Source: Octopus vulgaris (lineage: Eukaryota). Taken from it: a stretch of 64,000 bases of DNA. A program made the position numbers and the translations under genes. Location: positions 62,062,001 through 62,126,000 of the forward strand of contig OX597814.1 of the NCBI GenBank assembly GCA_951406725.2, read 5' to 3'. The number at the start of each line of letters is the position of its first letter. Positions within the stretch are counted from its first letter, which is position 1. The notes below the pieces were generated by a model. It had not been told where the DNA came from, did no database searches, and was given only the letters and a program-made list of their open reading frames with translations. This document shows, piece after piece, positions 9,301 to 47,422 of this stretch.

Positions 9301-12300
9301 TAAACTATGACTACTGAGGTCAGTGTAATTGACCTGGCCTTTCCACAGAACTTGCCGGCTTTGTGCCAAAATCTGAAACCAATAATTTCTGTTAAAGTGA
9401 TCATTTATTGAACTTACAGTGATGTTGAAATCAACTTAAGAAATGAAACATTTTGAAGTTTGCTTGTACATTACATTTTGGTTGCTGACCATCTTCATCA
9501 GGCTTTCTTATTCCCAGATGGTATTGGATTGGATTTGAACTTGGAAGCCTGTTACTGAAAACTTAGAGTAATAATCACCTTATCATATACCCAGGCCTTT
9601 TTTTTGTTATAGGATTGGGTAGCCACAGCAAGTCACACACCAGGCATTCCATTCATTTCCCAGTTCAAAGGGATGAGCTCCATTCTATGCTCAGGTCAAG
9701 ACATAGAACACAACCCCCAATAGCAGCAGCAGGGCCCGACAGCATATGCTGGTTCACCCTCCTGTCACATCATGCTGGTTCCATACCCCTTTGAGCAACA
9801 TGAAAATTCACTCAGCTATCCACAAACACTCTCCAAGCTTTCCTATCATTTATAAACTCTCTTGCCTCTCGTTCCACCAAAGCTTTCCTCACTCCATCCA
9901 TCCACACAAATCAAGGTCTGCCTCTGGTTCTGCTGCCTACCACTTCGACCTTCATCACCCTCCTTACCATCCACTCCTCATCCATCCTCTCCATGTGGCC
10001 AAACCACCTCAACATTCGTCTATCCGATTTGGTTGTTAGGTTTTCTTTCATTCCTGCTTGTCTTCACACCTCCTCATTCCTCATCCTGTCCATCCATGTC
10101 ACACCAACCATAGCCCTCAGACATCTCATCTCAAACACATCTAGTCACTTCCTTTCCGCTTCTCTCATCCCCCACATCTCTACACCATATAACATTGTCG
10201 GCACAATCTCATACATACCTCTTTTCGCTTTCATACTCAACCTTTTCTCTCTCAGAATACCTTTCACATCTCCAAGTATCTTACTCCTCTCCCTCACACT
10301 GTATCCAACCCCCTCAGCCAACCCCCACCACCACCACCGTCACATGTGATCCTAGATACTTAAAAACATTCACCTCCTCTAACATCTCACCATTTATATT
10401 CACATCCATCCTACCACCCTTTCCATCTCTCGAATATCTCATCACCTTACTCTTAGCAACATTCATTTTCAGTTTCCTCCTCTCACACTCTTTTCCAAAC
10501 TCTACCACTAGTCTCTTTAGTTGCTCTTCTGAATCCACCATCAATGTTGTATCATCAGCAAACAACAACTGCCATTTCTCCATTTTCTCCCACCATTTGG
10601 ACTCTTCTACCAAAGGTTCTAGCATTTACCTCTCTCACCACACCATCCATATATAAATTAAACAGCCATGGAGACATCACACAAACCTGTCTTAACCCCA
10701 CTTTCACATCAAACCATTCACTTCACCACCCACCCTAACGCATGTCCTACTTTCTCTCTAAAAACTTTGAACAGCTCTCAACAATCTACTATCTACTCCA
10801 TACAACTGCAACACCTGCCACATTGCATCCCTATCCACTCGGTCATATATGCCTTTTCTAAGTCCATAAAGGCCCTATACACCTCCCTCCTTTTTGCCAA
10901 AAACTTCTCACATATCTGTCTTACTACAAATATTTGATCTGTACACCCCCTTCCACTCCTAAAACCATACTGCTCCTCCCCTAGTACAGTCTCTGTCTGG
11001 TTTCTCACCCTAACAATCAGAACTCTCCCATACAGTTTACTAACCACACACAACAGACTTATACCCCTAAAAATTTCCACACTCATTTATCCATTAAGTA
11101 TAGGTGTCAGTGGTTTAGTGGATAAGAGTAAGACCACTCTTAGCTTTGAAATAAATATTCCTAGTTCAAATCTAGGTTCTAGGAATAAGACACTTGATGA
11201 TAATCAATGGTCAAACCAGTTGAAACAAGAATATTAAAAAAGAAAATTATGTCTAATGTTATTTGCCTGAGAAAAAATTATCTTAACAACATGTCAGATG
11301 TTTAGACATTTAAAGAATCTGTGAGGAAATATTAAATTATTTATTTTAATTTACTAAAACATTTCATTAAAATGATTGAATATTAATGAAACTTTAAAAA
11401 GTGATCATTCTAAATCTCAATTAAGGATGTAGTTTCAATATTGATTTGGAATACTTGCCTTATGTTGTTGATGCTTTGCTAAACAGAAAAAAAGCATAAA
11501 TCTTACAACTTCCAATTTTCACTCCACCCCCAACAAGTGTTTAGGTCGTTGCATATGTCACTACAAAAAACTGTTTATTGTTGAGATCATTTACAATTGA
11601 CGGATATTTGTCCTCATCTTGTTTGTTGTTAACACAATGTTTCGGCTGATATACCCTCCAGTCTTCATCAGGTGTCTTGAGAAATTTCGAACCTGGGTTC
11701 TCATTCCTAAGGTATTTTTTCGATGTTATTGTTGTTGTTGTTACTATTATTATTATTATTATTCAGATCACTGCTTGGAATCGAACTTGGAATCTTGGGA
11801 TTAGTAGCCCGCACTCTTAACCACTATGCCATATGCCCATGAGCATATGGAGTAGTGGTTAAGCATGGCTACTAACCCCAAGTTCTATTCCAGGCAGTGA
11901 CCTGAATAATTATAATAACAACATCGAAAAATACCTTAGGAATGAGAACCCAGGTTCAAAATTTCCCCAAGACACATGATGAAGGCTGGAGGGTATATCA
12001 GCCAAAACGTTGTGTTAACAACAAACAAGACGAGGACAAATATCCGTCAATTGTAAATAATGTACATAATTCTTCATCTCTTAAAAAACTATTTGCTATC
12101 AAACAAGTCTACTTAATTTGCATAAAAATGGATTTTCCTTATGGGAGATGCAGTCATTGTGGTATTTTTCATTTGTCCTTGGTTATTATTGCAAGTTACT
12201 GATTAAAGTATGCAAAAACTCATGACAATAGCATGCTGACTTTGCTTTGATAGATTATGACATAGAATGTCAAGATCAATAAGATATAAAATATCCAAGA

Positions 12301-15300
12301 GGTTGGCAGTTTGTATTTTATCACTGTTTTATGTATATGGCAAGATGCTTAACTCACAAATAGCCCAATCTGCCTAGCTTTAAATAGTTACTTGGGCAAT
12401 AGTACTATAAAACCTATGACTGTTTAAGTATATTAACCAACAGTGCTGAACTTAATTACTTTTATTCATATAGCTTGAAGTGAGGAGTTTTCTACCTGAC
12501 TGACACTGTATCAAGACACAAATTTTCAATGTTGCTCCCATAGCACAATGACTTACATGTTTTACTAGAAGATAGAGTAGGAAGGCTTATGGTTAGCAGT
12601 CTTAAGAAGGTTTTAGGATGAGGATTGCGTGTAATAAAAGAAATAAGCCTAAATTTATTTGATTATATTTAAATAGACTGATGCAGAGTTAATAAGTTCA
12701 AAGAAGCAGACAATTTATGTAGTAACTAAAGAGACAAATAAAAATTTGAGAGTGACTAAGTGAATGTAGTGTTGATTTAGTGCAAATTTCCCAGATCTTT
12801 TCGGTTTGAACAGCAGTTTTTTCTAGCGGTGTCATATGAAATTGTCACCCATAATTATGACCCTAGTATCGATCTATTGCATTTCAATCTGTATTAGGGT
12901 TAGGGGTGGGGGGAAGGGTATCTTTTTTTCTTCACAAATGTAAATAAACCCAATCTGTTTCTTAAACGAGGGACATATTCATACGGCACAGAATATATTT
13001 TACCTCAATAGACATATTTGATTGGTTGAAATTGCAGAAATTGAAGAAGAAAACAACAAATATCTTACAATCTATAGAATTTTCTCAATAAAGCCAAGAG
13101 AAAAAGATGTTTTATAAACACATTCTACCAGTATACGAAGTTTAAAATTATTTAGTTACCTAGAAATTATGTTAAAAACTGCCGTTCAAACCGAAAAGAT
13201 CCAATTTCCCTACTAAGCAGATAGTCTTTTCTTGATAGCTATACAGAAATATATTTAATGAATATATGTGTAAAGGGTGCACAATTGTAGACAAGTAAGC
13301 AGTATTTTAGTACAGGGCAAGTTAGTAGAGATATGTTAGGGGCATATTTGCTATGTACTTTGTTAATATTGATTTGCCATATTCTTAATATTGATATTCC
13401 TTAAATTGGCACAATCCAATTGTAAGCTACATTATCTGACATCTGTCATTTCTGCCACTCCTGCTAACTTTTTCCTTAATTATAGTTTTAGAAGTCATCA
13501 TCAGTTAATGTCTGCCTTCCAAGCTGGCATGAGTTGGACATTTTGACAAAGCTGGTAAACCAGAGGATTGCACCAAGCTCCACTGTTTACTTTAGCATGC
13601 TTTTTATGACTGGATGCCCTTCCTAATGCCAGTCAACTCTGATTATCTCAACAATTAGCAAACAAAAACTCGCCATCTCTTGAGATATTTAAAATCTAAA
13701 ACAAGTAGAGGAAGTAACCCTACTAAAATCAGTTGATCAAAACTTTTGGACAATATATGTCCATGCTGATTGGAATGAATCTGGTTTTTAAAACCAAGTG
13801 CTGAAACCAATGCAACTGTCCCAGTCTTATACAGCCTTAGCAAAGAATATTCTGTGCAGTTGACCAGACTATGAGTGATCAATATATAGAAATAGAAAGA
13901 CTGCAGTGATTCTAAATATTTCAAGACTTTGTGTCGATCCAACAAGAGAAATAGATATGTTCTTTTTGATAATGTTCTTTTTGATATACTGCAACAGTAT
14001 CGTAACATTCTATAATAGTGAATATACTTGCACTTGCAAAATCATCGTCATTTTATGTTTGATTTTCATACTGGCATTTGTTGGGTTTGTCTGCTCTGGT
14101 ACAATATCTTGCCACATGTTGCAATTACTCATCATCTCTTGTGTGTGGTTTAGCCTCTTGAGATCAACCATACTTTTTATCTTCCCATGACTTCCTCAGT
14201 TTTTCTCTTCTACAAGTTCCTTCTACTTGAATTACTTGACATTTTACCTACTGGCCATCCTTTATATACACCTTATGTCTACCTGTGCAGTCTTCTCTCT
14301 TGCATGCTACATCTGAATCCTCTGATGTCCATTTTTCTCTCAGCTCATCTTTTTCTTACCTACTAGCATTACATATCCAGCAGAATATGCTCACAATATC
14401 TTTCTAGCATTAGCACATCCTTCGCATTTACTGTCCATGTTTTGCCGTTATGTTCTATCACATATACAATTTTCCCTTTTCGCAAAGGAAGAAATCCCTT
14501 ATCAGCTTTTCCCCTGTATCCTTACTCAACTAATATGCTTTTACAACAACCATTGCCACTGCTAATTTGGTTGCAGTGGTAACAGAAATTGTCAACTACT
14601 TCTGGTGAACCTTCTGGGCACTTCAAAGATTTCATATCTTGGTGCTCTACTGCTAACTACTATGAACCTATTAGATATAAAAATACTTGTCAGCTGCCTT
14701 GAGATCCCAATGCATTTTTGTGTGTCCACAGTTTACTTGACTACACAGTATAGTGTTTTCACCTAATCCTTTTCTGCAACTTGAACTTGGCTATTTTCCA
14801 GATAACAAGGTTTTATTTTGGGATAATAAATCTCTGAACGAGATATAAACAGTAACTGCTTGACAACGTAAGGTGTACTAGCCACATTCAGATGGCTAGT
14901 AACCGTTGTCGAGCGGTTACTGTTTATATCTCGTTCAGAGATTTATTATTGCTTTCAGACAGTTTTTCTAAATCAGTGACAGTGGTTGCTGTGAAAAACG
15001 TTAAATATTATTTGCAAGGGGTCTCCTTCATCGAAAACCGGTGCTTACCATGCATTGACGAGAGGCAATTACCTTGAAACTATAGTCCGTATGTAGTACT
15101 TAGGTTTTCGAGGGAGGATGACCTCCCTTTGCAAATAACACAAGGGCACTGAGATTGTGTCTAAAGTCCATCTGGTGACGTTGATCGCCTGGGGCTAAAA
15201 GCATCAGTAACACCCCACCCCCAGTGGCTAGCCACATTCAGATGGCTAGTACACCTTACGTTAAGGTTTTATTTTGTTTCCTTACTAAAATTTTTGTCTT

Positions 15301-18300
15301 TGCTCAGTCAACCTTTAGTCATATTGATTTTTGACTCTGTTTTCACTTTTGGAAATTTTCCTCTATTTAGCCTTCAGGAATTCCCAGTCTGCCAATCTTG
15401 ATCTGCTTTACACAGGAGAGAGTCGAGAACCATACACTAAATTTGTCTTGGGATTCGTTGCTAATTAGCACAGTATTGCTGGTACACCTGCACAAAAATT
15501 ATATAATATAGCCTTTATTTAAGAGTGTGCTTTGTGAAGCGTTTGACTCTTATTTGCAGCAGATTGAATAACAACTAAATTGCCATGTGTACTAACCAAA
15601 GCCTAACAATATTTGATGGTTAAAGTCCTTGATATTAAGAGAAATAGTTACCATAGCTACAGTACACCTGTTCTATTATTTATTAAAATATATGAATTAG
15701 GTGGTCTGTTGCAGTCTAGTTAAGATGTAACAATCTCTATCTTTAGCTGTCCATTTTCATTCTTATCTTCATTGATCGTAACTTAGAGAATGAGATGCAT
15801 CTTACTGATGATGATGAGATTTCAGATAAACCTAAAAGTGTATAAAAACGAAACAAGTCTATTTTGAATAACTATTTAATTTGAACTGACTTTCTCTCTA
15901 CCCATCATGTAACATATTTGTTTGGTGTAATTTAGCAAAATATTTTCATTATAATGGCAATAAATATATCTCTTAAAATTGTGAGGCCATCCTGTACAAG
16001 CTCAGTTAGAGCATTAGACTAAAGACCTTATATGTTCTTAGTTCAATCCCAAGTTTTAACATGTTAACAAAGTTCTCATTTGTCCTTGAAATTATTACTA
16101 ATCAAAATTTCTATAGTTTAAATTGTTCTCTTTTTACTTTTATTTACACTTGACTATAGATTATGTGTGTGTGTGTGTGCAATCACGGCTGTGTGGTTAA
16201 GAAATTTGCAACTACATGATATGGGGTTCAGTCCTATGGCACAGCATCTTAGGAAAGTGTCTTCTATTATAGCCCAAGGCAGATCAAGTTTTATGAGTGA
16301 ATTTTTTTGACAGAAACTAAAAGAAGCCCATCGTGAGTGTGTGTGTTTGCTGACATCTGCGTTTCTCAAAAAAAAAATCATTGAGCTACAAGTGGTAAAG
16401 TTGTTATTTCTCCTATCAACAAATTATCTGCTGGCTTTGCACTTTTAAACATATGTAGAACAAGAGATCCCTTACTTGAAAATCAAGTAAATGTTAGGGT
16501 CAAGAAGGGTACCTGGCTGTAAAATAATGCCTCAATAATACAGCCATCTTAAGATTGAGCAAAACAACAGATATATGTAGAGAGAGTATTTTTGAAAGTT
16601 AAGAGTAAGAGTATAGTTGACTGTTTCAAAGTTATCTCATCAACCAGATGTGCCAGTGCTTTGTTATTTCCTCTTTGAGCTTTTATCCTAAATTATATTT
16701 TAATTTTTATAATCAGTATATTGTCAATCTGCTTCTAATTTCCCACTAACACACACTTGCACCTCTTATTTGTATTTGTATTGCTTTATTATGTAAGTGT
16801 ATTCTCTTACATATATATAACCTTTTTTTCTCATTTTAGTCTGGGAGAAGTCTTATGGAATACCAAAATCAAGCTAAACAGTTGTTTAAGAAAATATGTG
16901 GCAATACATCACCAACAACAAGACAGACATTAGAAACAGGGCAATATTTCTTCCAGTAAGTGAATTTTGTTGTTGTTGTTCTTATTATTATTATTAAGGT
17001 GGCAAGCTATCATAATCATGCCAGGCAAAATGCTTAGCTTTTCTCCTGACTTAACATTGTAAGTTTAAATACTGCCAGGGTTGATAAAATAAGTACCAGT
17101 TGAATACTGGGGTCGATTAAATTGACTTAGCCCCTCCCAGTATTGCTGGCCTTGTGCCAAAATTTTAAACTTATTGTTGTTGCTATTAGGCTGGCATGCT
17201 GGCAGAATCATTAGCATTTCATCCATCTTTGTTCTGAGTTCAAATTCCACTGAGGACGACTTTGCCTTTCATGCTTTTGGGGACAATAAAATAAATACCA
17301 GTTAAATACTGGGGGTTGATGTAATTGACTTCCCTCCTTCCCTCAAAAACTGCTGGCCCTTACCAAAATTTGAAACCATTATTATTCAGTGAGAGAGCAA
17401 TGCATGCCATTAAAGTGACACTGGGGTACCAACATATGAAGCCCAGTACACCCATCGTGACTACCCATCTAATAAGGATACACCAGGCACATGCATCACA
17501 ACCATATGAGCATGACATGGTGATCTCGTATCAAGGGAAACAGCACATGACCTTGCAGGTGGGCCCAGTTAGAATTTTTTTCAGGTTGAATAGCCCATCC
17601 CACTCAAAAGGTCTCTGAATAATGTTTAAGGATGATGAATGAAACACCTTTGTTTCCAGAAGTGAAGTATTCATACCCCAAAGAATTCATCTCAACATAT
17701 GCCTATGATGCTCCCTCACTACTCCTGGACATGATCAGAGATGCACATAACGTCAGCCACTACAGGACATGCTCAACTGGTTAAGGTCAAACAACTCTGT
17801 GGTATTGAGCAGAATATTTACTGTAGCCCATCTTTTATACCGAGACAAAACATGTACATAACACTTCCAACCATTTAAGATCAGGAGCCATGAGAACTGC
17901 TGCCTGGTACTGCATCAGGGTATTTATTATTATTATTATTCAGTAGTCTTATTTTTGTCACGTGCTTTCACTGCACTACTGATCACTGCTCTTGGGTATG
18001 TGCTGTGGTTTGTTGTGATGCTCTTATTTTCACTGTATTGAAAGTGTTTATGTAGGATGTGTGCAGTGCTAGTAGTGCTATTTTCTGTATATTATTTACA
18101 TCATTTACATTTGACGGATATTTGTCCTCATCTTGTTTGTTGTTAACACGTTTCGGCTGATATATTTTCCAGCCTTCATCAAGTGTCTTGGGGAAATTTT
18201 GAACCTGGGTTCTCATTCCTAAGGTATTTTTCAATGTTATTGCTATTATTCAGGTCACTGCCTAGAATTGAACTCGGAATTTTGGGGTTAGTAGCCCACG

Positions 18301-21300
18301 CTCATAACCACTACACCATATGCCTGTCTGGAATCAAACTCAGAATCTTGGGGTTAGTAGCCCACACTCTTAACCACTATGCTATATGCCTGGGCATATG
18401 GTGTAGTGGTTAAGAGTGCAGGTTACTAATCCCAAGATTCCGAGTTGAATTCCAGGCAGTGACCTGAATAATAATAATAACAACATCGAAAAATACCTAG
18501 GAATGAGAACCCAGGTTCGAAATTTCCCCAAGACACCTGATGAAGGCTGAAGAGTATATCAGCCGAAACATGTTAACAACAAACAAGATGAGGACAAATA
18601 TCCATGAAATGTTAATAATGTACATAATTCCTCGCCTCTCAAATATAGAACTGTATTTTCTGTATGTTATGTACATTCATAAGTCCTGTTTAGGTTGTGT
18701 AATTTGTCTGAATATTTTTTAATCATAGCTAATGCACCTATTATGATAGGGATTGTTTCTGTTTTTAGGCTCCATATTCAGGCTACCTCTATTTCCAGAT
18801 CTTTGTATTTTGAGAGTTTCTCTCTTTCTTTTAGAGATACATTGTCATCTGTTGGTATTGATACATTGATTAGAAGGCAATTTTTTCTTGATGATCTCTG
18901 ACAACTATAACTGGTTATTATCCTTGATTTCTCTATCTGTATGCATTGGCATATTCCAGAGTACGGTTACTTTGTCATTTTTTGAGACCTTTTCTGGAGT
19001 GTGCCTATGCCATCTTTTTTCTGTTGTCATTCCATAGTGTTGGCATAGCTTCCAGTGTATCATTGATAATAATGATAGAAACAGCAGGACACCAAATTAA
19101 ATTAATTACACTGTTATGATATGTTATACGTTTTGCTCATGCTCCAGGCATTCAGCTTTTGCAAAGATAGAAACTTCAATGCCAATAGAGATGGCAGTTC
19201 TTTAAATTCGTCCACCTGTTTCCTGCTGTAACTGCAAAGTATGATTACACCCAACACTAACTATGACCACAGGGTAACAGAAACTACCTACTTGCTCTAA
19301 TGCACACCTGAGCAGTCCATGGATTTTTCATTTCATTGTATACTTATTACTAACTTCTCCAGTGCATCTATTGCATCTAAAGTCCTGGTTGTTGAAACAG
19401 TGCTTTGGGAGCTTGTGGTTAAAACATGTATATGAGTAAAGTGAATCTTTTTGAATTTATGTGTAACAGCCATAGTACTCAGTTGTGTAAGCACAAGAGT
19501 GTTCTCACTTCTATTCCCACTTGCTTTTCTAATTTTTTTAATAGTTTGGTCTGGCAGAGTAGGTGGTGCCTATGGTCCCCTTGAACAACTGTAAAAAATC
19601 ATGGGCTGAGAGAGGATTCCACAAAGCTAGGGAAGGAAGGATTGGGTATGACTGAACATAATAAAGAGGAAGAGTGATATAACATGAGCTGTGTAGTAGT
19701 GGCCAGTATTGATAGAGGAGATAGCATAATTGAATTATTGATAACAACAATAATAATAATGATAATAACTTTTCTCTTATAGGCGTAAGGCCTGAAATTT
19801 TGGGTGAAAAGGACTACTCTTTTTATCAACCCTGAAAAGATGAAAGGCAGTCAACTTTGGCAGTATTTGAAATCAGAACATAAAGCATTTTGTCCAGTGT
19901 GCTAAAATTCTGCCAGCTCACCACAATGATAATAATAATAATGGTTTCAAATTTTGGCACAGGGCCAGCAGTTTTGGGGAAGGGGCTAAGTTGGTTACAT
20001 TGACCCTAGTTCTCAACTGGTACTTATTTTATTGACCTCGAAAGGATGAAAGGCAAAATTGACCTCAGTGGAATTTGAACTCAGAGCATGCAGACAAACG
20101 AAATGCTGTAGGTATTTTGCTTGGCGAGATGTTGATAATAAGATCAGAGAATTAGAGATATGGATGGTCAATTAAATCAAGTCCAACACTTGACTGTTAC
20201 TTTATTTCACTAACCCTGGAATAATGAAAGCTAAGTTGACCTATGGTAGATTTGAACTCAAACGATAGATAGAGGTAGCAAATACTACAAAGCAGTTTCT
20301 CCAATGCTTTAATGATTCAGCCAATCTATTGTTATTATTATTATTAATAGTAATAATAATTATTAATAGTAATAATAGTTATTATTATTATTATTAATAG
20401 TAATAATAATAATAATGATGATGATGATGATAATGGTTTTGAATTTTGGCACAAGGCCAGTAATTTCAGGGTGGTGGGTAAGCCAATTGCATCAATCCCA
20501 GTACTTAACTGGTACTTATTTTATTGACCCCAAAAGGATGAAAGGCAAAGTTGACCTTGGCAGCATTTGAACTTTGAACATAAAGGTAGACAAAATACTG
20601 CTAAACATTTTACCTGGCGTGGTAATAATTCTGCCAGCTCCCTACCTTTAATAATAATAATAATTTCAAATTTTGGCACAAGGTTAGCAAGTTCGGTGGG
20701 GTGATAAATTGATTACATTGACACCAGTATTCAACTGGTACTTATTTTATTGATCCTGAAAGGAGAAAAGGTAAAGTCAACTACAGTGGAATTTGAATTC
20801 AGAATGTAAAAATGGACGAAATGCCACTAAGCATTTTACCCTATGTGCTAAAAATTCTGCCAGCTCACCACCTTAATAATAATCTTTCCTGCTGTATGCA
20901 CAAGGCCTGAAATTTGGGAGGAGGGGACTAATCGATTACATCAACCCCAGGACTTGACTGGCATTTATTTCATCGACCCTGAAAGGATAAAAGGCAAAGT
21001 TGACCTCAATGGAATTTGAACTCGGAACATAGCGACACAAAATACTGCTGAGCATTTCACCTGGTGTGTTATTGATTCTGCCTGCTTGCTACCTTAATAA
21101 TAATAATAATACTTATTTTTATAATATTGTGAATGGTAAATTGACAGAAATAATGACTAATGGATTAATTTCTTAAAACCTTTAGTTCCTTCCCTCTACT
21201 TTGTGTTCAACTTATTGTTGCTTTAGTAATTTAAGTATCAGTTGTGCATTATGATTTAATAAAATATGTCATTATAATTGCCCTGTTGTTGTTTGAAATT

Positions 21301-24300: not shown

Positions 24301-27300
24301 TGATTTAACCTCAGTACTTTTTTTAAAACCTGACACTTATTCTATCAATCTCTTTTGCCAAACTGCTAAGTTACAGGGATAGACACAAACCATCACTGAT
24401 TGTTAGTCAGCTGGGAGACAAACATATATGCAAACACTCACACACACATATATACGACCGGGCTTCTATCAATTTCCGTCTACCAAAGACACTTACCCAA
24501 GGGTCGCATAAGGGTATTGAACCCAGATGTAACTGTTAAGCAAACTACTTTACTACATAATTAGGCACATAGTTTATAGTTGCCACTACAATATCATTTT
24601 GAAGCAGTCATAAACTCTTAGACATATCAAAAATACTTGTTGTAGGGCACTCACATATCTATAATATAGGCAGAACTGTAGCCCATAGGCTATATTTCTT
24701 GAATGGGCTAGAAAAATGTTTAGATCCTGTTGTATGAGGGAACTGTAATGCGGGGAAATAAGAAATGGTTTGTCTACCTTTTCATTGTCTATCATCCAGC
24801 TGTACTCAATCCAAAACTTGTACCCAGCCTGTGCACCTAACGATAGCAGCTGCTAATACCAGTCCCTCTCAGCTATTTCGCCTCACGTCTGTTCATTACA
24901 AGCAGTTTAGGCAAAAGAGGGTGACCCTGGTCTTCCTTCCCTCACTTCCTCTCTCCCGCTTCCTGTTCCAGTCGAGCCCTTTGACCATTGATATTACAAC
25001 CCTTTCCTTCTGGCTCATCTCATCTCCACAGATCCAAACAGTTACAAAGAGTATTACTCAAATATTTATTATGGTGCACCTACTATACTCAAGCATTCTG
25101 GGCCACATCCCCAGACCTCCTTCTGCCTTAATAGATAAGACTTCTTATGTTGATATGTTGTGTTCATCTGCTATTTTGCACTCCCAAAACTATGTATCTA
25201 CCATTTCTGTTGTCATCCCTAATGTATCCTTTAAGCTCATTCCAGTCTTTCCACTTCATGAAGCAGACCTACTCAATCTTCCACTCTGCTTTCAATTTCC
25301 AATGAACATAACCCTCTAGAATTAAAGCTGAGTACAGTGCTATTAACCCTTTAGCATTCAGATTATTTTATCATATGTAATGCTTATTTATTCACAGTTT
25401 TGAATTAATCATTCATTATCTTGTAGCTTCAAGATTTCAATGATGTGATTGTAGATATTTAGAATGACATCAGAGAGTAAGTGTGGGAAGCCAGATCTAG
25501 TAAGGGTGAACACAAAGAAGTTAGAATATTTGCACCAGATATGGCCAGTTTAAATGCTAAGAGTTAAAGGCAATGCTTTCGTCTTAAGACTAATTCTTTT
25601 TAATGCCTAGTCCAGTGAAATATAAACATGTTCATACCAAAATAGCTCAGCAGTGATTGCCACACTTAATCTAAATTCTCTGTTTGGTTGCTATCCATGT
25701 CTAGTGAAGCTTTACTTATCTTTGATTTGGCTACCTCCAGAACTTTCAATTTTATGAAAATTGTTTGAAATGTATTATTGATTTACTATTACTCTTTGTA
25801 CTACACAGGCTGTAATGTGACATCTGATATGTACAAACACTACAGATTGTAGCTGAGTGTGTCATAGGCTAATGTCCACAATTGGATCTGCTTCAAAAGA
25901 GTTGACTATAGCTACATGACATTAACAATGTTGCACCTATAATAGCAAGAACTGAGTTCTTAACAATGTGAACATTGGACTCTCTTTCTCTCTCTCTTTC
26001 CCCCTTTCTCTCTCTCTCTATCTCTCTCTCATATATATATTATTCAAAGGAATTCCAAATCTGTCTGTTTTTATGTTTTATTTATATTCTTTATAATATT
26101 AATGTAGAATATAGAATATATAGTATAAATAATATATATTGTAAAATGAAATTAAGTATTGATTGTCTTATTGAATAGATGAAATATTGAATATCAAATA
26201 TTAAGGGACTAGTACACTTTCTTGCATTAAAGCAGTCTTCAAGGTCCCAGGTTGTGACAGGAGTGTTTCAACTGTCAACTGAAACACTCCTGTCCACAGG
26301 AACATATATAAAGGACAAAAGACAGCCAGTCAAAAAAACAGAGTTGAAATTCCTTTGAATAATATGTGTGTGTGTGTGTGTATGTATATATATATATATA
26401 TACACACACACACTGGGTTTGGACAAAATCATGGAAACACCTTAAAATTTCAAACAAGTTTATTTTAATATAGGGTAGGACCACCTTTGGCAGCAATTAC
26501 AATTACATCTTTAATTCTATGAGGTATGGACTCGTACAAAGTTTGAATTGTTTCCAAAGGAATTTTTGTCCGTTCTTCAGCTAAAACAGTCTTTAGTTCA
26601 TGTAGTGATGATGGTGGAGGATATCGACTCCTTGTTTTTCTTTTCTAAAATGCACCATAAATGTTCAATAATATTGAGATCTGGGGACTGTGGTGGCCAG
26701 ATAAGATATTCAAGTTCACTAGAATGTTCCTCGTGCCATTCAATAACAACTTTAGCTGTGTGAATTGGTGCATTATCATCCTGAAAGATTGTATTTCCCT
26801 CCAGAAACAATTCCACAGCTATAGGATGAATCTGATCAGATAAAATGCTTAAATAGTCTTGACTATTAATTCTGCCATGGAGGGAAACCATTTGGCCGGC
26901 AGATTTCCAAGATATAGCTGGTGCCCCCCACACACACACATCCCCAATCCTCACAGATCCTTTTCCCATGTTTAATATTTGGAAGAAGGCTGTCCGGGTC
27001 AAATGCTACTTTTGGCTGTCTCCACACATACACTCTGCCAGTGGTCAGAAATAAGGTAAAGGATGACTCATCCGAGAAAATAACATTCTTTCACTCCTTA
27101 GGGACCAATTCTGTACGTTTTTACTACACTCTAAATGCTTTGCAACATCTGTTTTTGAAAGTAGTAATTTTCTTGTACAGCCCTCCCATGAAATCCGGCA
27201 TTGTGCAGCTCCCGGTGAACAGTTTTTGTGGAAACTGGGCTCTTGAGGTAGTCATTAAGCTCTGCAGTAATTTTGGGAGCTGTACTTTTGTGATCCTTTC

Positions 27301-31375: not shown

Positions 31376-31416
<41 letters not shown>

Positions 31417-33480
31417 AGACTAAACACATATTTTCCTTTGTCTTTACATGTGTGCATTGATAGTAAACAAAAGTCTCACCATTCATATAAACTGTGTCAT
31501 GTGTTTGCAGTCTTATGTGAAAGAACATTCAATAGATTTATGATTGCTACCTTGCTTGGAAATAGGTTATGATTGGCATCTGGAAGGGCATCAGACCATA
31601 GAAAATTTTGCCTCTCTGAAGTTTCATTTGATTTATGCAAGCATGGAAAAATAGAAGTGATGATGACAATTGCAAGGACACTGGCTTCTGTTATAGTTAT
31701 TATTGTCGTTATTAAGGCAGTTAGCTGGTAGAATCATTAGCATGTTGGACTAGATGTTAGCTGTCTTCACATTCTGAGTTCAAATTCCACTGAGGTTTGC
31801 TTGTCATCCTTTTGGAGTCAATAAAATTAATACTAGTTGAGCACTGGGGTCGATGAAATCAACTTACCCACTCCCTACAAAATTTCAGGCTTTGTGCCTA
31901 TAATAGAAAGAATTGTTATCATTACTACTATTCTTTTAACTCAGGCTTTGTTGAAACTCCTGATGTTTTACATGTATAACAAACTTCCTATCTACAGTCT
32001 ATGGTACCATGTTATTCTCTTCAGCTTTCTAATGCTTTCCTGGTGATTCTGGCCATGCCAAGGTGGCAAACATTTTGCAACAGCTCTACTGGACTCTCTA
32101 TTCCCATTTCCTTTATATTCCTCTTAATACCTTCTGATACTGTCCCCCAAAGCCCCAACAATAATTGGTACTATCTTCATCGTTTTCATTTCCAAAGACA
32201 AGCTAATTCACTGATAGGTCCAACTTGTTGTGCTCAAGCACCTGACCTGTTTGGTTTGGGAAATCAGACAGGATTTTGCAGGTCCTTGACTCAGCCGCTC
32301 TCTGTGGTTTGTGTTTGTACTACATCTTGTCTCTCTCTCTGACCCCGACTTTTCACTCAGTTTCTAATGCCACACTTTTGCTACCTCTTCATGTTGCCAC
32401 AACATTATCATGATCATGATCATCATTATTAATAAAGCAATGAGCTGCCAGAATCGTTAGCACACCAAGTAAAATGCTTAGCAGCATTTTGCCTGTTTTC
32501 ACGTTCTAGGTTCAAACTCTGCCGAGGTCAACTTTAGCTTTCATCCTTTTGGGAGTCGATAAAATAAGTACCAGTCAAGTTCTGGGGTTGATGTAATCAG
32601 CTTGCTTTCTCCTCCAAATTGCTAGCCTTACGCCAAAATTTGAAATCCTCCTCGTTATTATTACTATTTTTTGTTTTGTGTGCTGTAACTCATTCTTTGA
32701 TATTGTCCTTCATGTCTTGGGCCTTTGTAGCCAACAAAAGAAATCATTATTATTGTCCAAGTAAGTCCTTATGAAGAAGGACTTGCTTGAACTGTGACAA
32801 TCAGTCCAACACCCATGCCAGCAAGGAACTGGACATACCATGATGGTGTTTCTATATTTAAAGAATTGATAATTATTTTTAAGAAATGACATCAAATTTT
32901 CAGAAACATTTGTTGATCAAATATATTAATTTTAAAAATTAATGTTCTTATTTTATCAGACACATTCATTCAGAAAACTCGTAAATCCTATATGGACTCA
33001 CGGGCTCGGAAGAATTTGTCTAGTATCAATACAGAACTTCAAGATGTGCAACGAATTATGGTACAAAATATTGATGATGTTTTACAACGTGGAGAGGCCC
33101 TAAACAGTAAGTATAACAGAGAAAACATTATTCTTCCTGTTAAATTTATTTTTACTTTTTTTTTGTTTTTCTGTTTATATCTCGGTGGGGGTGGGGTGGG
33201 ATCACAGTTGTAGTGCCTGTTTACCAGGTTACAGGCCAGCAGTTTGTATCCTGTCTTCAACACTGTACTGAGTTCTTAGCCAGAATACTTAATAGTCAGA
33301 AGGTTTTATATAACCTTTTTAATGCCAAACTGCCTGAGACTGCCAACTTTGTGCTTATTTCTAGCAGACTTAGTGACCATGTTAAAGCTCCCTTGTTGAT
33401 GCTTTGTATGGCTTTTTTGTTACTTTAGTGAAAGATATAGGTTCAGGCATGGCTGTGTGGTTATGAAGTTAGGTTCAGAA

Positions 33481-33512
<32 letters not shown>

Positions 33513-37871: not shown

Positions 37872-37918
<47 letters not shown>

Positions 37919-38487: not shown

Positions 38488-38615
38488 TTATTTAGTTTTC
38501 TTCCTTCTTCTTGGCATGTCTTTTTTCATCTTAGCATCAATTATACTTTGAGATATTTTCTTTATGGCACTTCTGCTCAAGACTTCTGGTTCATCCTCTC
38601 GGCTACTTTCGCTCT
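38488..38615 (-). CDS. ODAD3: ODAD3 exon 12 (stop)
   Basis: aag|(E)SESSREDEPEVLSRSAIKKISQSIIDAK..RRRKKTK*; minus-strand AATAAA at 38448-38453. Confidence 0.9.
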
Positions 38616-41600
38616 CTTTGGTAATTAATAGGAAAAGAAAAATAATAAAATAATATATAGAAGTTAGCATTTTATCCATCTCTTTTGCATAAGACTGTTT
38701 ACAATAATAAAAACAGCAATGTTCAGTTAAGAAATACAAATTGTTAAAGGGATCAAACTCACCAGCATAGATGTTTTCAAGTTGTGTGGAAAGCTTAACA
38801 CGTGTATTATATGCAGGAAGTCTGCTTTCAATATTGATATGGAACTGAAATTCAGACATAAATATTGCATATTAAAATTACTGCTATTTATTTAGATATA
38901 AGTGAAATATCTGGGGAATCGCTCACTTCAAAAAATTTTTATTTGTATATAATTCTGCATGGTTTATTATTTTTTATATAATTATAATACAAATCAAATG
39001 CAAGAATATTTTGTCATTATCTTTGTTGCCTTTTATACTCTAACTTTTGCTCATCTAACATTAATTTCAACTCTAACCTTCTTCTAAGCAGCAATTCTAT
39101 TACATTTGAAGTTGAGAATAATGATGATGGTGGAACAGAAGAAAGAATGCACAGCTATTTTTCTGTTAATCTTACAGGGGTGCTAGAATACCTTCCAGTT
39201 GTGGTCTCTCTGATTTACTCACTATTTTGAGTTTGAAAAGAAAAGGCTTTTCAGCTTTTTGTGATGATAGCTTTTAGCAGTTCATTATATATTTTGTAGG
39301 ACTATAATATTCTAAAGATCTTGTCAACTATGACTACTGCTAATTGGTACTGGGTAAAAATATCATCATCGTACAATCTTAGATGAGGTGTTTTTCAAGT
39401 TGTATATCTCTTGATAACTATAGACTCAATTGTAAGGATAGATGTTGATTACTGTAAATCTGAATTACAGCTTCTGTACAAGTAACAACAAACTATTACA
39501 ACTTGTTGCCTTATATACAATTTTTAAATAAATAATAAATATGCACAAATTTAAGGCAAGGTTTTTTTTTCCAATTTTCTATCAAAAAAGAAAAGTGTTA
39601 CTTTATTGCTTTAAAAAGATTTTCATTATAAAAATAGAGGCTGACATATATTTTGGTGTGTATGTATATATATATAAGAAAGCTTGTAACAAAGCAAAGA
39701 GTCTTACAAAACCCTGTATATTTCAGGCTCAAAGGCCTATATTCAGAAGGAAGCAGTCTAAGAAATGTGTAGTAAAGGAAACTTCCAACTGCACATTCAT
39801 TTCTTGGATTGCTTCCTTCTGAAGATAGGCCTTTGCATGTGAAATATACAGGATTTTGTAGAACTTTCTGCATTGTTAGCATTTTTATTCCCCTTTTCTT
39901 TTTATACTACTGTACTACAATGCTTCAAGCAAACTACAACACTCATATATATATATATTTGGCATTGACAACTTTTCTAATATTATAAACAAATGCATCT
40001 AACCCATCTACATGTCATATCTGGCTCGTTGTTCCTTTCTATCCATCACAGTTGTTAAAAACTGAAAGAACACCGAAATATTTTTTTTAAAATCTCACTA
40101 ACATAAAGATTAAAACCTGTGGAATAGTCTACATCAGTCCAAACCCATGTCATTATGGAAAAACAAACCAATAGGAGTTGTAATGGTTTATTAATTAAAT
40201 TCTAGCATACAAATTGTGTCTGTACCAAATATTTAGAATGAGATCATCTGAGTAACTGATCACTGAAGATTTTATCATCAATACTTTGACACAAGCAATG
40301 TGGCATTAGGTACTTATGTAGACTATCTGCTTATTTATCATTGCTGAAACCTTTCCCCACTTGTACAGTAATTCTGACATAAGTTGTTATCTTGTATCTG
40401 CTCCAACACTACAGTTTGGGTTAAATTATCTTCTATTTGGAACCTACCCAGTTCTTAAGTGCATGATAGAGTTATGTGATATGTTTTTAGATGCAAATCT
40501 CTGCAAATAAATCTCAACAATATGCACATTTCTCCATCATGACAAGCAGATGATATTGTTGCTCACATATACTTGTCAGTTTGCATACAGATTTATTTCT
40601 TACCTCCTCGTCTTCCATTTGTTTTTGAACTTTCTCCAAGTCCACATCATGAAAGTCATCCATGAGCTTCAGCAGTTTCTCTTCACATAAAGCTAATTGA
40701 TCAAGGACATACTCATTTGAAGAAGGGGAAAGCTTTGTTGATGCTGTGTACCCTTTTGGCTGTAGTAGTGAAAGGGAGAACAAACCAAATTACCAGATGA
40801 TATTTCACCCCTTTAACATTCTTAACATGTTTCAGTCTATTAATAATCTCAGTCATTGTATTAGATATATATACAAATAAAAATACACACACACACACAC
40901 GTCATGAACTAACTATTACTTTCTCAGATGCAGCACGGAATTTTCTCAGTGAACAGGTCGCAGTTTCAAAGCGACGAAAATATTTCAACAAATTAAATTT
41001 AAATGTTGAAGTGAATCTAATGGTTTTTGTGTGTTTTTTAAATGGCTTATAAACACCTTCCACGCTGCAATAAAATAAAATTATTAGACTTAAGAAAATA
41101 AGATTTTTATTGAAATTTGTTAAGGAGCTTTTCTATTACTGTTGAAGAGTTTTTATTATAAGTTGGTGTACTGTGTGATGCCAAGATCTAACATTTCAGA
41201 CACTTGTTACAAATATAAAGAAAGTAATGATTTAAAGTGAAAGAATGATAAGGAAGAGAAGTAGTGTGAGATGAACAAAGAGGAAGCAGAGCAAGAGGAC
41301 CAAAATTTATAAGCAAGATGAAAATCAAATGAAGTGGAACAAAGGTAATAAGTAAACTGGAAATCAAATCTCGTCATAATACATCACATGTGTGTATATA
41401 GATAGATAATGTATGTATAAATGTGTGTCTGTTTTCTTTAGTAATTGGGTGTAAATAACCTAAGTTATTTATATACTCAGAAGGGAAATAATTCCCTAAA
41501 CAAGCATAATTCATGGGAAGTAAAGCCCTTCAAGATGAGAGTGTTGATGTAACAGACTAAAAATCTCTTGAAGGCTGTGCCCCTGCATTGTTACAGTCCA

Positions 41601-43815
41601 ATATTATAGCTTTATCAACAAATGATAATAGAAAAATAGAAAATACTTCTATAAAGTGTTTTTGTACAGCACAAGCAGTGTCAGTCACTGCAGGTTTTGA
41701 GCATTTGTGCTGTTTATAAATCTATTTATCTATCATCTGTGTGTGTGTATGAAGACAATGAACATTAAAAGAGACAACACAGGAAGGGCAAAGGTTGACA
41801 AATATGGTATATATGTACACACACATGCATGCACACCTAAAACACAGGCAGAATAAAATTGAAACCTGAGAAATACAAAAATATAAAATGAAAGACATAC
41901 TGTTTTTAGATGAGAGAGTCTATCAGCAAGATGGTCAATACCAGATTTGACTTGCAATAAGATTTTAGACATTTTCTCCAGTTTATTTTCAATTTCAGCC
42001 CTACTAGTTTCTTCTTCCTGTAATTTCTCTTGGAATTCTTCAAGCATTCTTTGTCCTCTGAAGAGAAATAATGAACAATATTCATTATCATCATCATTTT
42101 TTAACATCCGTTGTCTATGCTGGCATGGGTTGCACAGTTTGACCAAAGCTGAGGAGCTGCACCAGACTCCAGTCTGATATAGCATAGCCTTTCCAAACGC
42201 CAACCACTCTAAAAGTGCAATGGGTGCTTTTACATGCCACCGGTACAGATGCCAGTCGTGTGACACTAGTATCTGCCACAACTACGATTTCACTTGGCTT
42301 GATGGGTCTTCTACTCAAGCATGGTAGGTCATGGAAGGTCTCAGTCATTTGTTATTGCCTCCACTCAAATATTGAAAGAAAGAAATATATATATTAAAAA
42401 AAAGCAAAAAAAAAAACAAGGGTGACAGACAGATGTGTAAATTGGCAATGCTGATTACTCAGAAACACCATCTACACAAAAAAATAATAATCAAGTTTCT
42501 GCTAAAATATTTAATGTGCTAAAAATTATTAATCTTATTAGAACTGCTGATGCACCGAGGAAAAGATAACATTTGCTCAGGTCAAGAAGACACATGTTTT
42601 TGAGTATGTGAGTAGTTCACTTCACGACCACATGGTTTCAGATTCAATCCCAACATATGCACACTCTATTACCTAATATACAAATGCCTATTTTTTTTCT
42701 TTTCTGACTCATAATGTGCACACATATATAAATGTGTGTGTGTGTGAAGAGAGAAAAAACACAAAGATTCAGAGTCAGTGAAAGAAAATGAAATAGAACA
42801 TCAGTTTATTCCTCTTACACTTTCCTTCTTGCTGATTCTTCAACTCATTCTTATAGTTACACCTCTTGTTTTTCCATATAATTCTACTTTTCTTTCTCAA
42901 CTCTTCACTATCCTCCCCACCACCACCACTATCATCATCATCCTCATCGTCACAATAATCATTTGTCATGACTCTTCAATTACACCCACGTCCTCTTCAG
43001 TCTCACAACATCTATTATTGAGGCAATCAAATGCTTATACTCCATATCCAGCATCCACAACCTGGTCATAAGATATTTCTCACACAATACAAATGAGCCA
43101 GGAAAAAATTTGTTTAGACAAATCTGTAGGTGAAAGTATGTTGATATGTGTTAGTGATATTGGAAACTTATATATCAATGTGTGTGTGGGGGTGTGGATG
43201 ATGATGATGATGATGAAAGGCAGCGAGCTGGCAGAAACATTAGCACGCAGGGGAAAATGCTTCGGGGTATTTCGTCTGCCGCTACGTTCTGAGTTCAAAT
43301 TCTGCCGGGGTTGACTTTGCCTTTTATCCTTATGGGGTCGATAAATTAAATACCAAAATTTTGGGAATGATGATGATGATGGTGGTGGTGGTGGTGGTGG
43401 TGGTATGATGATGATGGTAGTGGTGGTGGTTGTAACTAGCATCAGACTAATTCTTCATCATCATCATCATCAGCATCAACAACAACAGTATTTTAATGTC
43501 CACTTTCCGATGCTTGCATGGATCAGACTAAGTTTATTGAGGTAGATTTTCTACAGCAAAATGCCCTTCCTGTCACCAACCTTTACCCGTTTCCAAGAGT
43601 GACAATATTTCTCCATGGCCAGATATGTTCATTACAGAATATTGGAAATGAATGGCACTGCTTGTATGACAGTGACAATCATATTACAACTGTCATGCAA
43701 TGTCAAGACAAGGAAACAAACATAAATACACTCACAGCCCCACACATTGATATACATATATACATACATGCATCCATCCATCCATCCATGCATCCATTCA
43801 TACATACATGCATAC

Positions 43816-43860
<45 letters not shown>

Positions 43861-45615
43861 TATCATATAACTATTGAAAAGGTTGCAAGATGCAACGAAA
43901 ATTTGAGAAAAATAAAAAAGAAATAAGTGGAAATTTTACCAGTGTGTGTGTTAAAATTATAAGGCACTAAAAGAAAATAACTCTCCCTAGACACAACAGA
44001 ATATGTTTCAACAAACGCTCTCATATAAAGAATCTTGCAAACCAAATCCCAAAACGAAATATATTAATTAAGTTATAGAGTTATATATATTAAGTCATAG
44101 AGTGATGAATGGTTTCACATCCAAAAAGGTCATAGCTTCGCAGATGTCTGCAAAATGTGTATATAAATGTGTGTGTGTGTGTGTGGCTCAGTAATAGAGC
44201 ACTGGGCTCACAATCATGAGGTAGTGATTCCAATTCCCAGGCTGGGCTGTGTGTTGTGTTCTTGAACAAGATACTTTATTTCACACTGCTTCAGTTCACT
44301 CAGCTGTAGAAAAGACTCACGATGTCACTGGTGCCAAGCTGTATCAGCCTTTGCCTTTCCCTTGGATAACACTGGTGATGTGGAGAGGGAAGGCTGGTAT
44401 GCATGGGTGACTGCTCGTCTTCTATAAACAACCTTGCCTGGACTTGTGCCTCAGAGGGTAACTTTCTAGGTGCAATCCCATGATCATTCATGACCAAAGG
44501 GGATCTTTATATATATATATATATATATATATTACAGGATTCTTTCAGTTTCCATCTATCAAATCCACTCACAAAGCTTTGATCAGCCTGAAGCTATAGT
44601 AGAAGACACTTGCCCAAGGTGCTGTGCAGTGGGATTGAATCTAGAACCCAGAACTATGTGGTAGAGAAGCAAACTTCTTACCACATAGCCATTCCTGTGC
44701 CACAATTCTAATTGAAGAAATCTATGATTGAACACATTCCAGCCATGACCACCCTGGCTTCTGAGCTTTATGTAGGACTATTGCAGCCCAATGTACTCTT
44801 AGCTTCCCTTAGATGCTATGGGACATATTGAGGGTGATTTAGATGCTATTTCTAGCCTGCAAAGAAACTATAGAGAAGTTGCTTAATTAGCTCACATGTG
44901 TAGCTGTTATCATGGATATTGTTGTTTTTAGCTGTGGTTTGCCCTGATCAATGAATCTGGTTCTACATTACCCAATATGTTCTTTAAGTCAGAGTGAGAT
45001 TTTGATGAAGATTTGGCTGCTATTTCCAGCAAGTCAACTGTATAGAATAGAAGTGGGAAACTTTTTTTTCAACCGGGGTCAGCAGATTTTTCTTTCTACA
45101 ATAGGCACAAAGGCTGAAATTTTAGGGGAAAGGAGCTAGTCAATTACATCAACCCCAGTGCTCAAGTAGTACCTTATTTTTTATCAACCCCCAATAGGAT
45201 GAAAGGCCAAGTTGACTTCAGCAGTATTTGAACTCTGAACATAAAGCTAGAAGAAATGCTGCTAAGCATTTTGTCTGGCTTGCAAATGATGCTGCCAGTT
45301 AACTTCTTTCACCAGGGTTAGTCCATCATAAACACATTAAGAACTGAACTAATAGTAGTAGTAGTAGCAGTGAAGGTAGCAGCAGTAACTATACTAGTTA
45401 TATCTGTTGTCTAGCCCCAGGTCAATCCTAATTAAACAGACCTATGATAAGAACTGTTTGAACTTGACCATTCTGTCCTTTTGTCTTTTTCTCAGACATT
45501 GTGTATCTAAGACTACATTGTGCAAAATGTGTCTTTTCTTTTTTTTTGAAGGTGGTGGGATGAAATTCGAGGGAGATTTGACTGCTACATCTAGCACAAT
45601 GAGCAACCATTACAG

Positions 45616-45662
<47 letters not shown>

Positions 45663-47422
45663 CTGTCTGTCTGTCTAGCTAGCTAGCTAGCTTTTAATGT
45701 ATTCATTTTCACTGCTATCTGTTTGAAAAAATTAACATGTGTTTCTCTTTCAATATTTCCCACTCCTAGCAGCAACAACAATAGAATTATTACCTATTAT
45801 TAGCAGGAAGCACTGTACCGAATTCCATAACTCATTCAACTGGGTCATTAAGATATCATTGAAATGTCCAAGCAGTGCATCTAGAGCAAGTCAACTTAAC
45901 AGGGGTCCATCTTAGACACACTATTTTAGAAAAGAGTATTTAACAGTTATATCACTTGTTAAGGTTATCTCTACAGTTTTTCTGTAGAAATAATAGTCAG
46001 CACTGATTTTATTACAACATTTCATAACAGAGATGCCTGATGTAAACAACAATGATACCAAAGATGAAAAATGGGTAATGGGCATATACACCCAATATCT
46101 ATGTCCCATTTTTGATCTCATTATTGGTTACATTAGGCATACTTGGATATGAGTGCTGCTTCAGAAAATCTGAAGCTGTTGTTTTAATACTGTATAAAAG
46201 GAAACAAACATATAAGAAGAAAATTTATGTATAAACTTGATCAGTTCACATTTTAGCCACTGCCTAGTAGTGTGTTTAATTTGTTCACTGAACACTGCCA
46301 AAAATTCTCTCGTGTTTCTCAAAAATTCTCCCTAAATCACAAAATAAGGGTGGGAAATGTGGCCTATTTTTCAAATCCTGGCAGCAACACTGAAGCTGGA
46401 AACAGGATAATAATGGAATTCTACACTTTATCAAATTCAAGAATATAAACATGTTTTTAAGCACAACACATGCGGAGTCAAAAAGAAACACTACCTTTCA
46501 CCAGCACACCAGGGTAGGCACTGCATGAATGACAGTGCTTTCTCTCCCTAGCATGAAGCTTCCTATCTTGAGCATGTGAGTATGCGCACAACTGCCAAAC
46601 ACCGCATTAGTAGAACTGTGAAGCGCACAGTTCTATACAAGGATTTTTGTATTTTTTCCATAAACTAGGGGATGGCTACTGACATTGAGCTTAAGGATTA
46701 TATAATGTATAAGTATAAAGAAAGAATTAAAGAAAAAAAGGACTCATTATATTGAATGTTATTGACATTGAATGGAAATATGGGATGCTGCAGTTTCGCA
46801 GTGCCTATGTACAAGCCACCACTGCTTGGGTAGGACAATAACAACCTAAAACACAAATTACAATACAACACAAATTACCTTGACAATTTGGTTTCTCCTG
46901 TATATTTCATTTCTTCAAATGTCTTTTGAAGTTTTACCTTTTCCTCTCTCAGAAGAGAAATTTGTTTTTCATTTTCTTGCTTCAGCTCTTCTAAATGAGC
47001 TGTTGTTGCTCCTTGGTTTTCAAATCGACTTACAACTTCCTTGAAAGAGTCCAAAATATAATGATATGTAATTTAAAATGCCAATAGGAAAATCATGCTG
47101 TTATATATATATATATATATATTTCGTTTTTGGACTTGGTTTGCAAGATTCTTTATGTGAGTTCATGTGTTGAAGCATATTCTGTTGTGTCTGGGGAGAG
47201 TCATTTTCTTTTTGTGCCTTATAATTTAAAACAGTCACCGGTAAAATTTCCACTTATTTCTTATTTTTATTTTCCTAAAATCTTCGTTGAGTTTTGCAAC
47301 CTTTTCAAGAGTGAAAACTATTGAAAAGGTTGCAATACGCAATGAAAATTTTAGGAAAATAAAAATAAGAAATAAGTGGAAATTTTACTAGTGTGATACA
47401 TTATAAAGCAGAAAATACACCG

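Follow-up and report, generated by a model that had tools for sequence, protein, structure and literature searches.

The window analysed here, a 64-kb stretch of the Octopus vulgaris genome (contig OX597814.1, positions 62062001-62126000; genome 2.8 Gb, 227 contigs; 35% GC, microsatellite-rich), carries 12 hammerhead ribozyme motifs in eight cassettes that belong to six genome-wide repeat families (A, B, C2, D, G and U). Most probably, these are decayed copies of type I hammerhead elements: C2, U and G, and likely D, are the ends of Penelope-like elements (PLEs), B is a retrozyme and A a tRNA-headed element. The hammerheads of the master elements likely cut as dimers under selection for the core pair between positions 3 and 8, and the short copies would have been made from uncut RNA. 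Two cases are apparently new. A high-copy G3-C8 family, sister to a U3-A8 PLE, would be a natural variant if cutting occurs. On the same condition, a single retrozyme lineage in which C-G, U·G and U-A subfamilies have all been amplified would be new.

The original prediction listed 12 motif copies with their cores. All of them could be mapped to the given places, and their cores are as given (A four copies, U three, D two, B, C2 and G one each); the coordinates mark the low end of stem I, except for 40949, which is position 3 itself. Ten of the 12 copies carry lesions in core, stem or cut site, and only those at 47318 and 26205 have kept the family fold. Because the copies are decayed, strict hammerhead descriptors yield no match in the window. 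Likewise, an Rfam scan of the window sequence at E<=5 returned 79 matches without any hammerhead, only microsatellite and hairpin look-alikes. A relaxed test for core plus stem II found four motifs in the window versus 0.55+/-0.75 in 200 shuffles, only one of which reached four. The predicted density of about one cassette per 8 kb is true locally but not typical of the genome: eight cassettes in 64 kb compare with approximately six cassettes of the same lineages in 200 kb of unselected sequence. This means, the window is enriched. Target-site duplications of 12-14 bp flank three of the window cassettes (Table 1).

For each motif family, the genome search gave 76-3,160 first-look candidates, of which 40 were scored and 30 loci retained. 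Family majorities were built from the 29 copies other than the window copy; as top matches, these are biased toward the query. The majorities restore the helices that are damaged in the window copies. All six majorities fold into a type I hammerhead with the layout stem I, core, stem II, GAAA, short palindrome, UH and stem I. Stem I comprises 5 bp in A (core CUGAUGA), 4 bp in D (CUGAAGA), 7 bp in G (GUGAACA, with a 5-bp stem II and a 6-nt palindrome) and 3 bp in U (UUGAAAA). Family B combines a 6-bp stem I and a 4-bp stem II with the core UUGACGA. C2 has a 5-bp stem I, the 8-nt core CUUGAAGA and a 3-bp stem II between unpaired bases. This core is one nucleotide longer than the usual seven in 44 of 45 C2 copies and can be read either as C3 plus an extra U or as U3·G8; a relative of C2 (L219) has a 7-nt core. 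The extra nucleotide between A9 and stem II that had been proposed for four families is present in A, D, G and U and, in addition, in C2. Minimal hammerheads, expected throughout, are found in A, C2, D, G and U, but B is a canonical 6-bp/4-bp type I ribozyme. When the majorities are folded freely, stems I and II form. The palindromic dimer helix does not, as expected for a weak helix.

Applied to the window together with 200 kb of fetched sequence (264 kb in total, unselected), the full descriptor with positions 3 and 8 left free had nine matches, seven of them in one tandem array, versus none in 15 shuffles. A core-blind scan gave 143 matches, which group into nine multi-copy clusters and 15 singletons. 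Seven of these clusters have hammerhead-type cores, one has A6 replaced (A6U) and one, a single tandem locus, has no such core. Furthermore, related families differ by compensated stem changes, C2 and L219 in stem I, G and U by one compensated pair in stem II. Additional hammerhead families exist outside the window (L265:680-857, L226, L250:7050, L246:96, L199:27, L219:4806, L238:199). They comprise E (U4C in 6/10), F (A6 replaced in 12/12), three further U3-A8 motifs, the C2 relative with U4C and one C3-G8 motif with a long loop II. A tandem array of ~67-nt units derived from the C2 hammerhead region was also observed (L093, C14:17562540-17563376).

At the core pair 3-8, A and D have C-G, G has G-C, U has U-A and B has U3·G8. 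In a strict sense, the proposed covariation among families is found for A, D, G and U, but not for B with its wobble and C2 with its 8-nt core. Among 12 families with a clear core (C2 was excluded as ambiguous, and several families comprise 2-5 copies), 11 have a Watson-Crick pair at 3-8 versus a mean of 5.25 in shuffled pairings (p=0.0012). When only one family per lineage was used, p<0.05 was obtained in 20 of 24 picks, with lineages grouped by eye. After removal of 14 loci that overlap the window or one another, G3 was counted in 39/40 and C8 in 38/40 copies of family G, both U3 and A8 in 52/52 copies of U, and U3 in 39/46 and G8 in 45/46 copies of B. Stronger evidence of covariation comes from two comparisons among related sequences, G with U and the B subfamilies with one another. 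Genome-wide, the G3-C8 pattern has 8,954 matches versus 167 for the reversed control. Among the 100 matches listed are two loop-II subfamilies and a few unrelated sequences. One diverged copy pairs the G3-C8 core with a U-type stem II.

A pattern for the B lineage that left positions 3, 7 and 8 as N matched 352 times versus 0 times for the control. Counted by hand among the 100 matches listed, 60 are U3·G8, 22 C3-G8 and 18 U3-A8; any other combination, including C·A, is absent. The U-A copies represent subfamilies, since 17 of 18 carry C11.1 and since they are found as neighbouring pairs; in single copies, CpG decay can turn U·G into U-A. Thus, the Watson-Crick pair is missing in the subfamily of the window but present in its C-G and U-A sisters. 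To regard UUGACGA as a damaged CUGACGA was considered and rejected: It is a subfamily state.

The proposed membership of the hammerheads in the Penelope system is supported by a linkage to open reading frames (ORFs) for reverse transcriptase (RT) and GIY-YIG endonuclease. In C2, U and G, the hammerhead lies in a terminal repeat behind an RT-GIY-YIG ORF. C2 is located ~290 nt behind the stop of a GIY-YIG ORF at two loci (L217 and L229). U, with its motif intact, is found ~670 nt behind a 665-aa RT+GIY-YIG open frame (L251) and also behind an ORF end in L089. The L251 protein has weak Pfam matches, its Atlas neighbours are RVT_1/HTH_animal/GIY-YIG proteins, and no solved structure matched it. 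For G, the link is a chain leading from the adjoining loci L253/L265 over L259 to L035: the sequence after a broken ORF end in L253/L265 shares 81% identity with the beginning of L259, and L259 continues into the stretch leading to the G motif in L035. An inverted ORF arm is present in L035 as well. No ORF was found in L264, which lies upstream of a long G copy. The ORF pieces linked to G share 34-48% identity with the U ORF, and the U ORF shares 24-34% with Neptune-like ORFs. Hence, six families exist as predicted, but they are not all unrelated: by ORF identity, G and U are sister lineages.

D is located ~220-310 nt behind a conserved ORF end of the E..N type in 4/30 loci, with at least 150 related matches and no profile hit. 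This ORF end presumably is the C-terminus of a GIY-YIG domain. A tblastn search with Neptune-like ORFs linked L089 only and found nothing for D. Pfam applied to 143 of 210 long open frames beside family copies returned LINE-type RT and DDE pieces without a PLE link. By sequence, C2, U and G appear to be the ends of ORF-bearing PLEs, and D probably belongs to them.

The GIY-YIG search gave at least 150 matches, many of them in 781-aa open frames in which Pfam reads RT plus GIY-YIG. This abundant PLE bears its own U3-A8 hammerhead ~870 nt behind the stop. It appears to be young (L211-L215 and many GIY-YIG matches; RT, CX4CxxC linker, GIY-YIG), and its 3' untranslated region (UTR) is filled with CCAAT/TGACGTCA-like repeats. 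In the U-linked ORF (L251:317-2311), RT motifs A and B' are ~120 aa apart versus ~55 aa in the 781-aa ORF. The extra stretch resembles an insertion in fingers in a PLE with C-terminal endonuclease, a feature that PMC8557442 describes mainly for Naiad and Chlamys. L254 contains an RT fragment 56% identical to the U ORF directly upstream of a G-type UTR on the same strand, possibly a chimera or a nested insertion.

Only A and B look non-autonomous. That all elements are non-autonomous, as had been suggested, does not apply to C2, U, G and probably D, which are truncated ends of ORF-bearing PLEs. B consists of non-coding units of ~355-360 nt, each bearing a canonical type I hammerhead, which form tandem and inverted arrays. 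Two same-strand motifs occur in 3/30 B loci, and a relative (L235) holds seven. One locus with B beside a PLE ORF (L216) was treated as chance. Upstream of family A and in its orientation, a tRNA-like head is found in 16/30 loci versus 0/150 other loci; ARAGORN detected no tRNA in the window. These heads may contain stretches that resemble the Pol III boxes A and B. In the window (11757-11910, 18244-18473) and in L004, L007, L011 and L017, family A has the look of a tRNA-headed short interspersed element (SINE) with a (TAA)n link to a PLE-type hammerhead end. Some A copies contain an extra shared stretch of ~550 nt between two (TAA)n runs.

How do the short copies form? According to the original prediction, they are ribozyme-processed. 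This is not supported, because the copies extend across the uncut site: among 229 aligned G, U, D and B pieces, none begins at the cut and five begin within 4 nt of it. The use of copy ends as marks of the cut site was rejected on this count, which is by itself a weak test since central copies had been selected for the whole motif. In addition, a 3-nt deletion of the cut site, seen in 3/41 A copies, is common to both arms of one A cassette, and in D the two arms have a change in common that is present in 2/28 copies. Such shared lesions fit a single insertion from a non-cutting template or a later conversion between arms. Instead of the cut site, fixed 5' stops 44-68 nt upstream of it were found in 27/31 C2, 20/23 U and 16/27 G copies. 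The C2 point is situated 31 nt after a TATA box in ORF-linked copies, and the first non-template base is G in 27/63 copies versus 13.5 expected. At the other side, A, D, G and U each have two clusters of 3' ends ~35-65 nt apart, which match the optional 3' tail and internal priming of PLEs (PMC11167929, PMC3846280). Other traits of PLE insertion were also found: an inverted 5'-truncated arm, AT-rich or microsatellite targets and a variable duplication.

From the fixed 5' points, the TATA spacing of C2 and the excess of non-template G, we infer run-off copying of capped uncut RNA. In the RNA of master elements, the hammerheads likely act as dimers when they cut, and 3-8 is likely held there by selection as C-G, U-A or G-C. 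Short copies, however, likely arise without cutting. Priming by the PLE reverse transcriptase would take place on uncut RNA, at either of two tail positions that follow the ribozyme ~55-105 or 95-175 nt beyond the cut depending on the family. cDNA synthesis would then reach the capped 5' end or terminate prematurely, often folding back into an inverted arm, and insertion would occur at AT-rich or microsatellite sites. Thereafter, the inserted copies likely decay neutrally.

Several observations weigh against this model. At the 5' junction, A is enriched too (26/63), and inverted junctions may bias the count. The lineage-level 3-8 test fails in 4/24 picks (p 0.11-0.14). The G-ORF link depends on a chain of broken copies, the D-ORF link on a presumed motif without profile hit, and no ORF was found for A (30 loci) or B. 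RNA-seq of G (three runs, 1,290-1,769 reads each) displayed no pile-up of starts or ends at the cut, an insensitive test on fragmented cDNA of mixed copies, possibly from another species. G reads map to both strands, and ~80% extend into unrelated flanks. For some families of high copy number, the core is predicted to be poor: U3·G8 in B, the extra U in C2, U4C in E and the replaced A6 in F. Since E and F were amplified in spite of this, copy number is no proof of activity. In U, stem I comprises only 3 bp, and stem II is closed by a G·U pair.

That the motifs merely resemble hammerheads by chance, in repeat DNA rich in AT, can be dismissed almost completely. This would agree with the lack of strict-descriptor and Rfam matches in the window, but this reading is already refuted by the empty shuffles of 264 kb, the core-blind recovery of hammerhead cores and the placement behind PLE ORFs. 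A more serious, albeit unlikely, explanation is that the variant cores have become vestigial: motifs with G3-C8, U3·G8 or the extra U would no longer cut, and their copy number would reflect founder amplification by a ribozyme-independent PLE machinery. Copies running across the uncut site, the missing cut signal in the insensitive RNA-seq test, the amplification of E and F, and the A cassette that was inserted with a clean duplication despite a cut site deleted in both arms would all agree with this. In an anole PLE, cutting is protein-assisted, and insertion in vitro does not require it (PMC11167929). Naiad PLEs do well although they lack canonical hammerheads (PMC8557442). However, a dead motif is not expected to transvert both 3 and 8 while preserving the pair and the remaining core. 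G3-C8 is retained in two loop-II subfamilies and in the diverged copy with its compensated stem II, C·A is absent from the 100 B-lineage matches listed, and related families differ by compensated stem changes (G/U, C2/L219).

The run-off model also competes with two other origins of the short copies. It is improbable that the six families are non-autonomous elements, independent of one another, with RNA ends generated by the ribozyme. The tandem units of B and, in part, the tRNA-like heads of A fit such elements, and the fixed 5' ends of G, U and C2 resemble those of discrete short elements. But longer C2, U, G and D copies extend into PLE 3' UTRs and ORFs, the fixed starts lie upstream of the cut and not at it, and the ORF linkage already contradicts this origin for C2, U and G. 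Less improbable, though still unlikely, is that an antisense or intron-retaining transcript gives rise to the short and inverted copies by self-priming, a model found in PMC3846280, or that they result from terminal-repeat recombination, and not from capped run-off. In this case, the G start could be a splice acceptor: the sequence upstream of it resembles a branch point, a pyrimidine tract and CAG. Head-to-head junctions are common, and RNA-seq reads come from both strands. On the other hand, the C2 start is placed 31 nt past a TATA box, the non-template G excess is consistent with cap copying, and copies that stop at the G start share no upstream exon. Run-off from capped uncut RNA is preferred here.

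PLE hammerheads cut slowly in vitro. One suggestion is that they may merely parasitize PLEs (PMC8557442). The compensated 3-8 changes between related lineages argue for selection on the active fold in master elements, though short copies do not need it. Tentatively, and with some doubt, the families could be read as a natural 3-8 series: a working G3-C8 PLE lineage of ~9,000 copies would be sister to a U3-A8 lineage, and a retrozyme would have moved among C-G, U·G and U-A, with the wobble usable in vivo since every state was amplified. Most short PLE copies would then be run-off cDNAs of capped uncut transcripts. The B subfamilies and the G-C versus U-A sister PLEs provide ready natural constructs to study drift of the core pair and the function of the wobble. 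As foreseen, a CUGANGA search overlooks the G3-C8 and U3-A8 families. Since they escape CUGANGA descriptors and, in the scan of the window, also Rfam, hammerheads are undercounted in genomes of this kind.

Table 1. Hammerhead cassettes and motifs in the window (window coordinates).
Feature	Position	Strand	Remarks
Family A inverted cassette 1	11565..12094		12-bp target-site duplication, one mismatch (11565-11576 / 12083-12094)
Family A hammerhead, core CUGAUGA	11631..11676	-	One lesion each in stem II and palindrome
Two head-to-head tRNA-like heads, family A	11757..11910		11757-11838 minus, 11843-11910 plus; (TAA)n after each
Family A hammerhead with C3A and G12A	11971..12016	+	Predicted dead
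Family B retrozyme-type insertion	14807..15276	+	Exact 14-bp target-site duplication (14807-14820 / 15263-15276); short inverted head from 14821
Family B insertion, interior	14903..15262	+	Single 360-nt unit
Family B canonical type I hammerhead	15049..15093	+	Core UUGACGA (U3·G8, subfamily state); G2.1A lesion
Family A inverted cassette 2	18079..18665		Exact 12-bp target-site duplication (18079-18090 / 18654-18665); tRNA-like heads 18244-18473
Family A hammerhead with C3U	18145..18187	-	3-nt cut-site deletion, common to both arms of cassette 2
Family A hammerhead, core intact	18532..18574	+	3-nt deletion at cut site
Family C2, Neptune-like PLE end	26033..26363	-	Begins at family fixed 5' end (~26277); inverted head 26276-26363; microsatellites on both sides
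Family C2 hammerhead variant	26205..26248	-	8-nt core CUUGAAGA; 5-bp stem I; near intact
Family C2 stem II	within 26205..26248	-	3 bp, one unpaired nucleotide per side
Family D inverted cassette	39676..39944		A1.1C common to both arms
Family D hammerhead	39713..39750	-	G8U
Family D hammerhead	39815..39852	+	Stem II broken
Family G PLE end	40903..41071	+	Family 5' start ~40926; ends at first of two family 3' ends
Family G hammerhead, core GUGAACA (G3-C8)	40942..40992	+	Three lesions in stem I (7 bp in family majority)
Family U PLE end	43868..44060	+	
Family U hammerhead, core UUGAAAA (U3-A8)	43871..43907	+	U1.1G lesion
Family U inverted cassette	47122..47411		
Family U hammerhead	47275..47311	-	A15.1G
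Family U hammerhead	47318..47354	+	Family-intact, 3-bp stem I

Besides the cassettes, the window contains an open frame (41736-42281, minus strand) with a weak match to the ODAD1 coiled coil (E 4e-5). It is probably a host exon, and some cassettes may therefore be intronic. A remnant of a DDE_3 (Tc1-like) transposase is located at 26601-27005 (minus strand). Other high-copy SINE-like repeats, among them 9178-9314, 17231-17340, 32436-32572, 43219-43355 and 54199-54375, are unrelated to the hammerhead families.

The closest relatives are the minimal hammerhead ribozymes of PLEs, which have low activity as dimers (Cervera and de la Pena 2014, PMC4209133; all comparisons with published systems refer to the parts of the sources available). 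Shared with them are the type I fold, the short stem I, the palindromic minimal stem III and the unpaired nucleotide between 9 and 10.1. Both sets also comprise many families per genome with mostly solitary copies and opposite-strand pairs 100-700 bp apart, and U3-A8 has ~1,300 matches in Schistosoma mansoni. Thus, the minimal fold, the extra nucleotide, U3-A8 and the inverted pairs are already published. By contrast, neither the text nor the 56 motifs of Fig. S3 contain G3-C8 or a GUGA core, U3·G8 occurs once among these motifs (UUGAAGA, Saccoglossus 1) without being discussed, and a C2-type 8-nt core is not listed. The natural core variants of Perreault et al. 2011 (PMC3088659) share U3-A8, insertions near C3, U4C and the 10.1-11.1 mismatch. 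They include no natural G3-C8, however, and their insertions in the C3 region come from saltern microbes, not from animal retroelements. In the literature searched, which was covered in part, no natural G3-C8 or U3·G8 family was found. The unpaired nucleotide on both sides of stem II in C2 is shared with the Hydra-clade hammerheads (Craig et al. 2021, File S2, PMC8557442), but all cores listed there start with CUG. The C2-linked ORF has a CX2-5CxxC linker of the Neptune/Nematis type and not the Hydra linker. A very large set of PLE hammerhead variants was reportedly compiled by Lunse et al. in 2017 and may include natural G3-C8 or U3·G8 cases.

Family B resembles the animal non-LTR (long terminal repeat) retrozymes (PMC7229834; bioRxiv 10.64898/2026.07.22.740005) in its non-coding tandem or inverted units and its canonical type I hammerhead. 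Mussel retrozyme units measure 350-390 bp compared to ~355-360 nt in B. Different is that one B lineage has C3-G8, U3·G8 and U3-A8 subfamilies. For the PLE ends, the anole Poseidon element PAc (PMC11167929) is a counterpart. Its natural core is C3-G8 and G3-C8 was only engineered, the C3G/G8C double exchange partly rescuing cutting; the part available does not mention fixed 5' starts or a non-template G next to them. As in the octopus families, the hammerhead of PAc is located just upstream of two priming sites that give an optional tail, and uncut RNA serves as template, as proposed here for the octopus elements.

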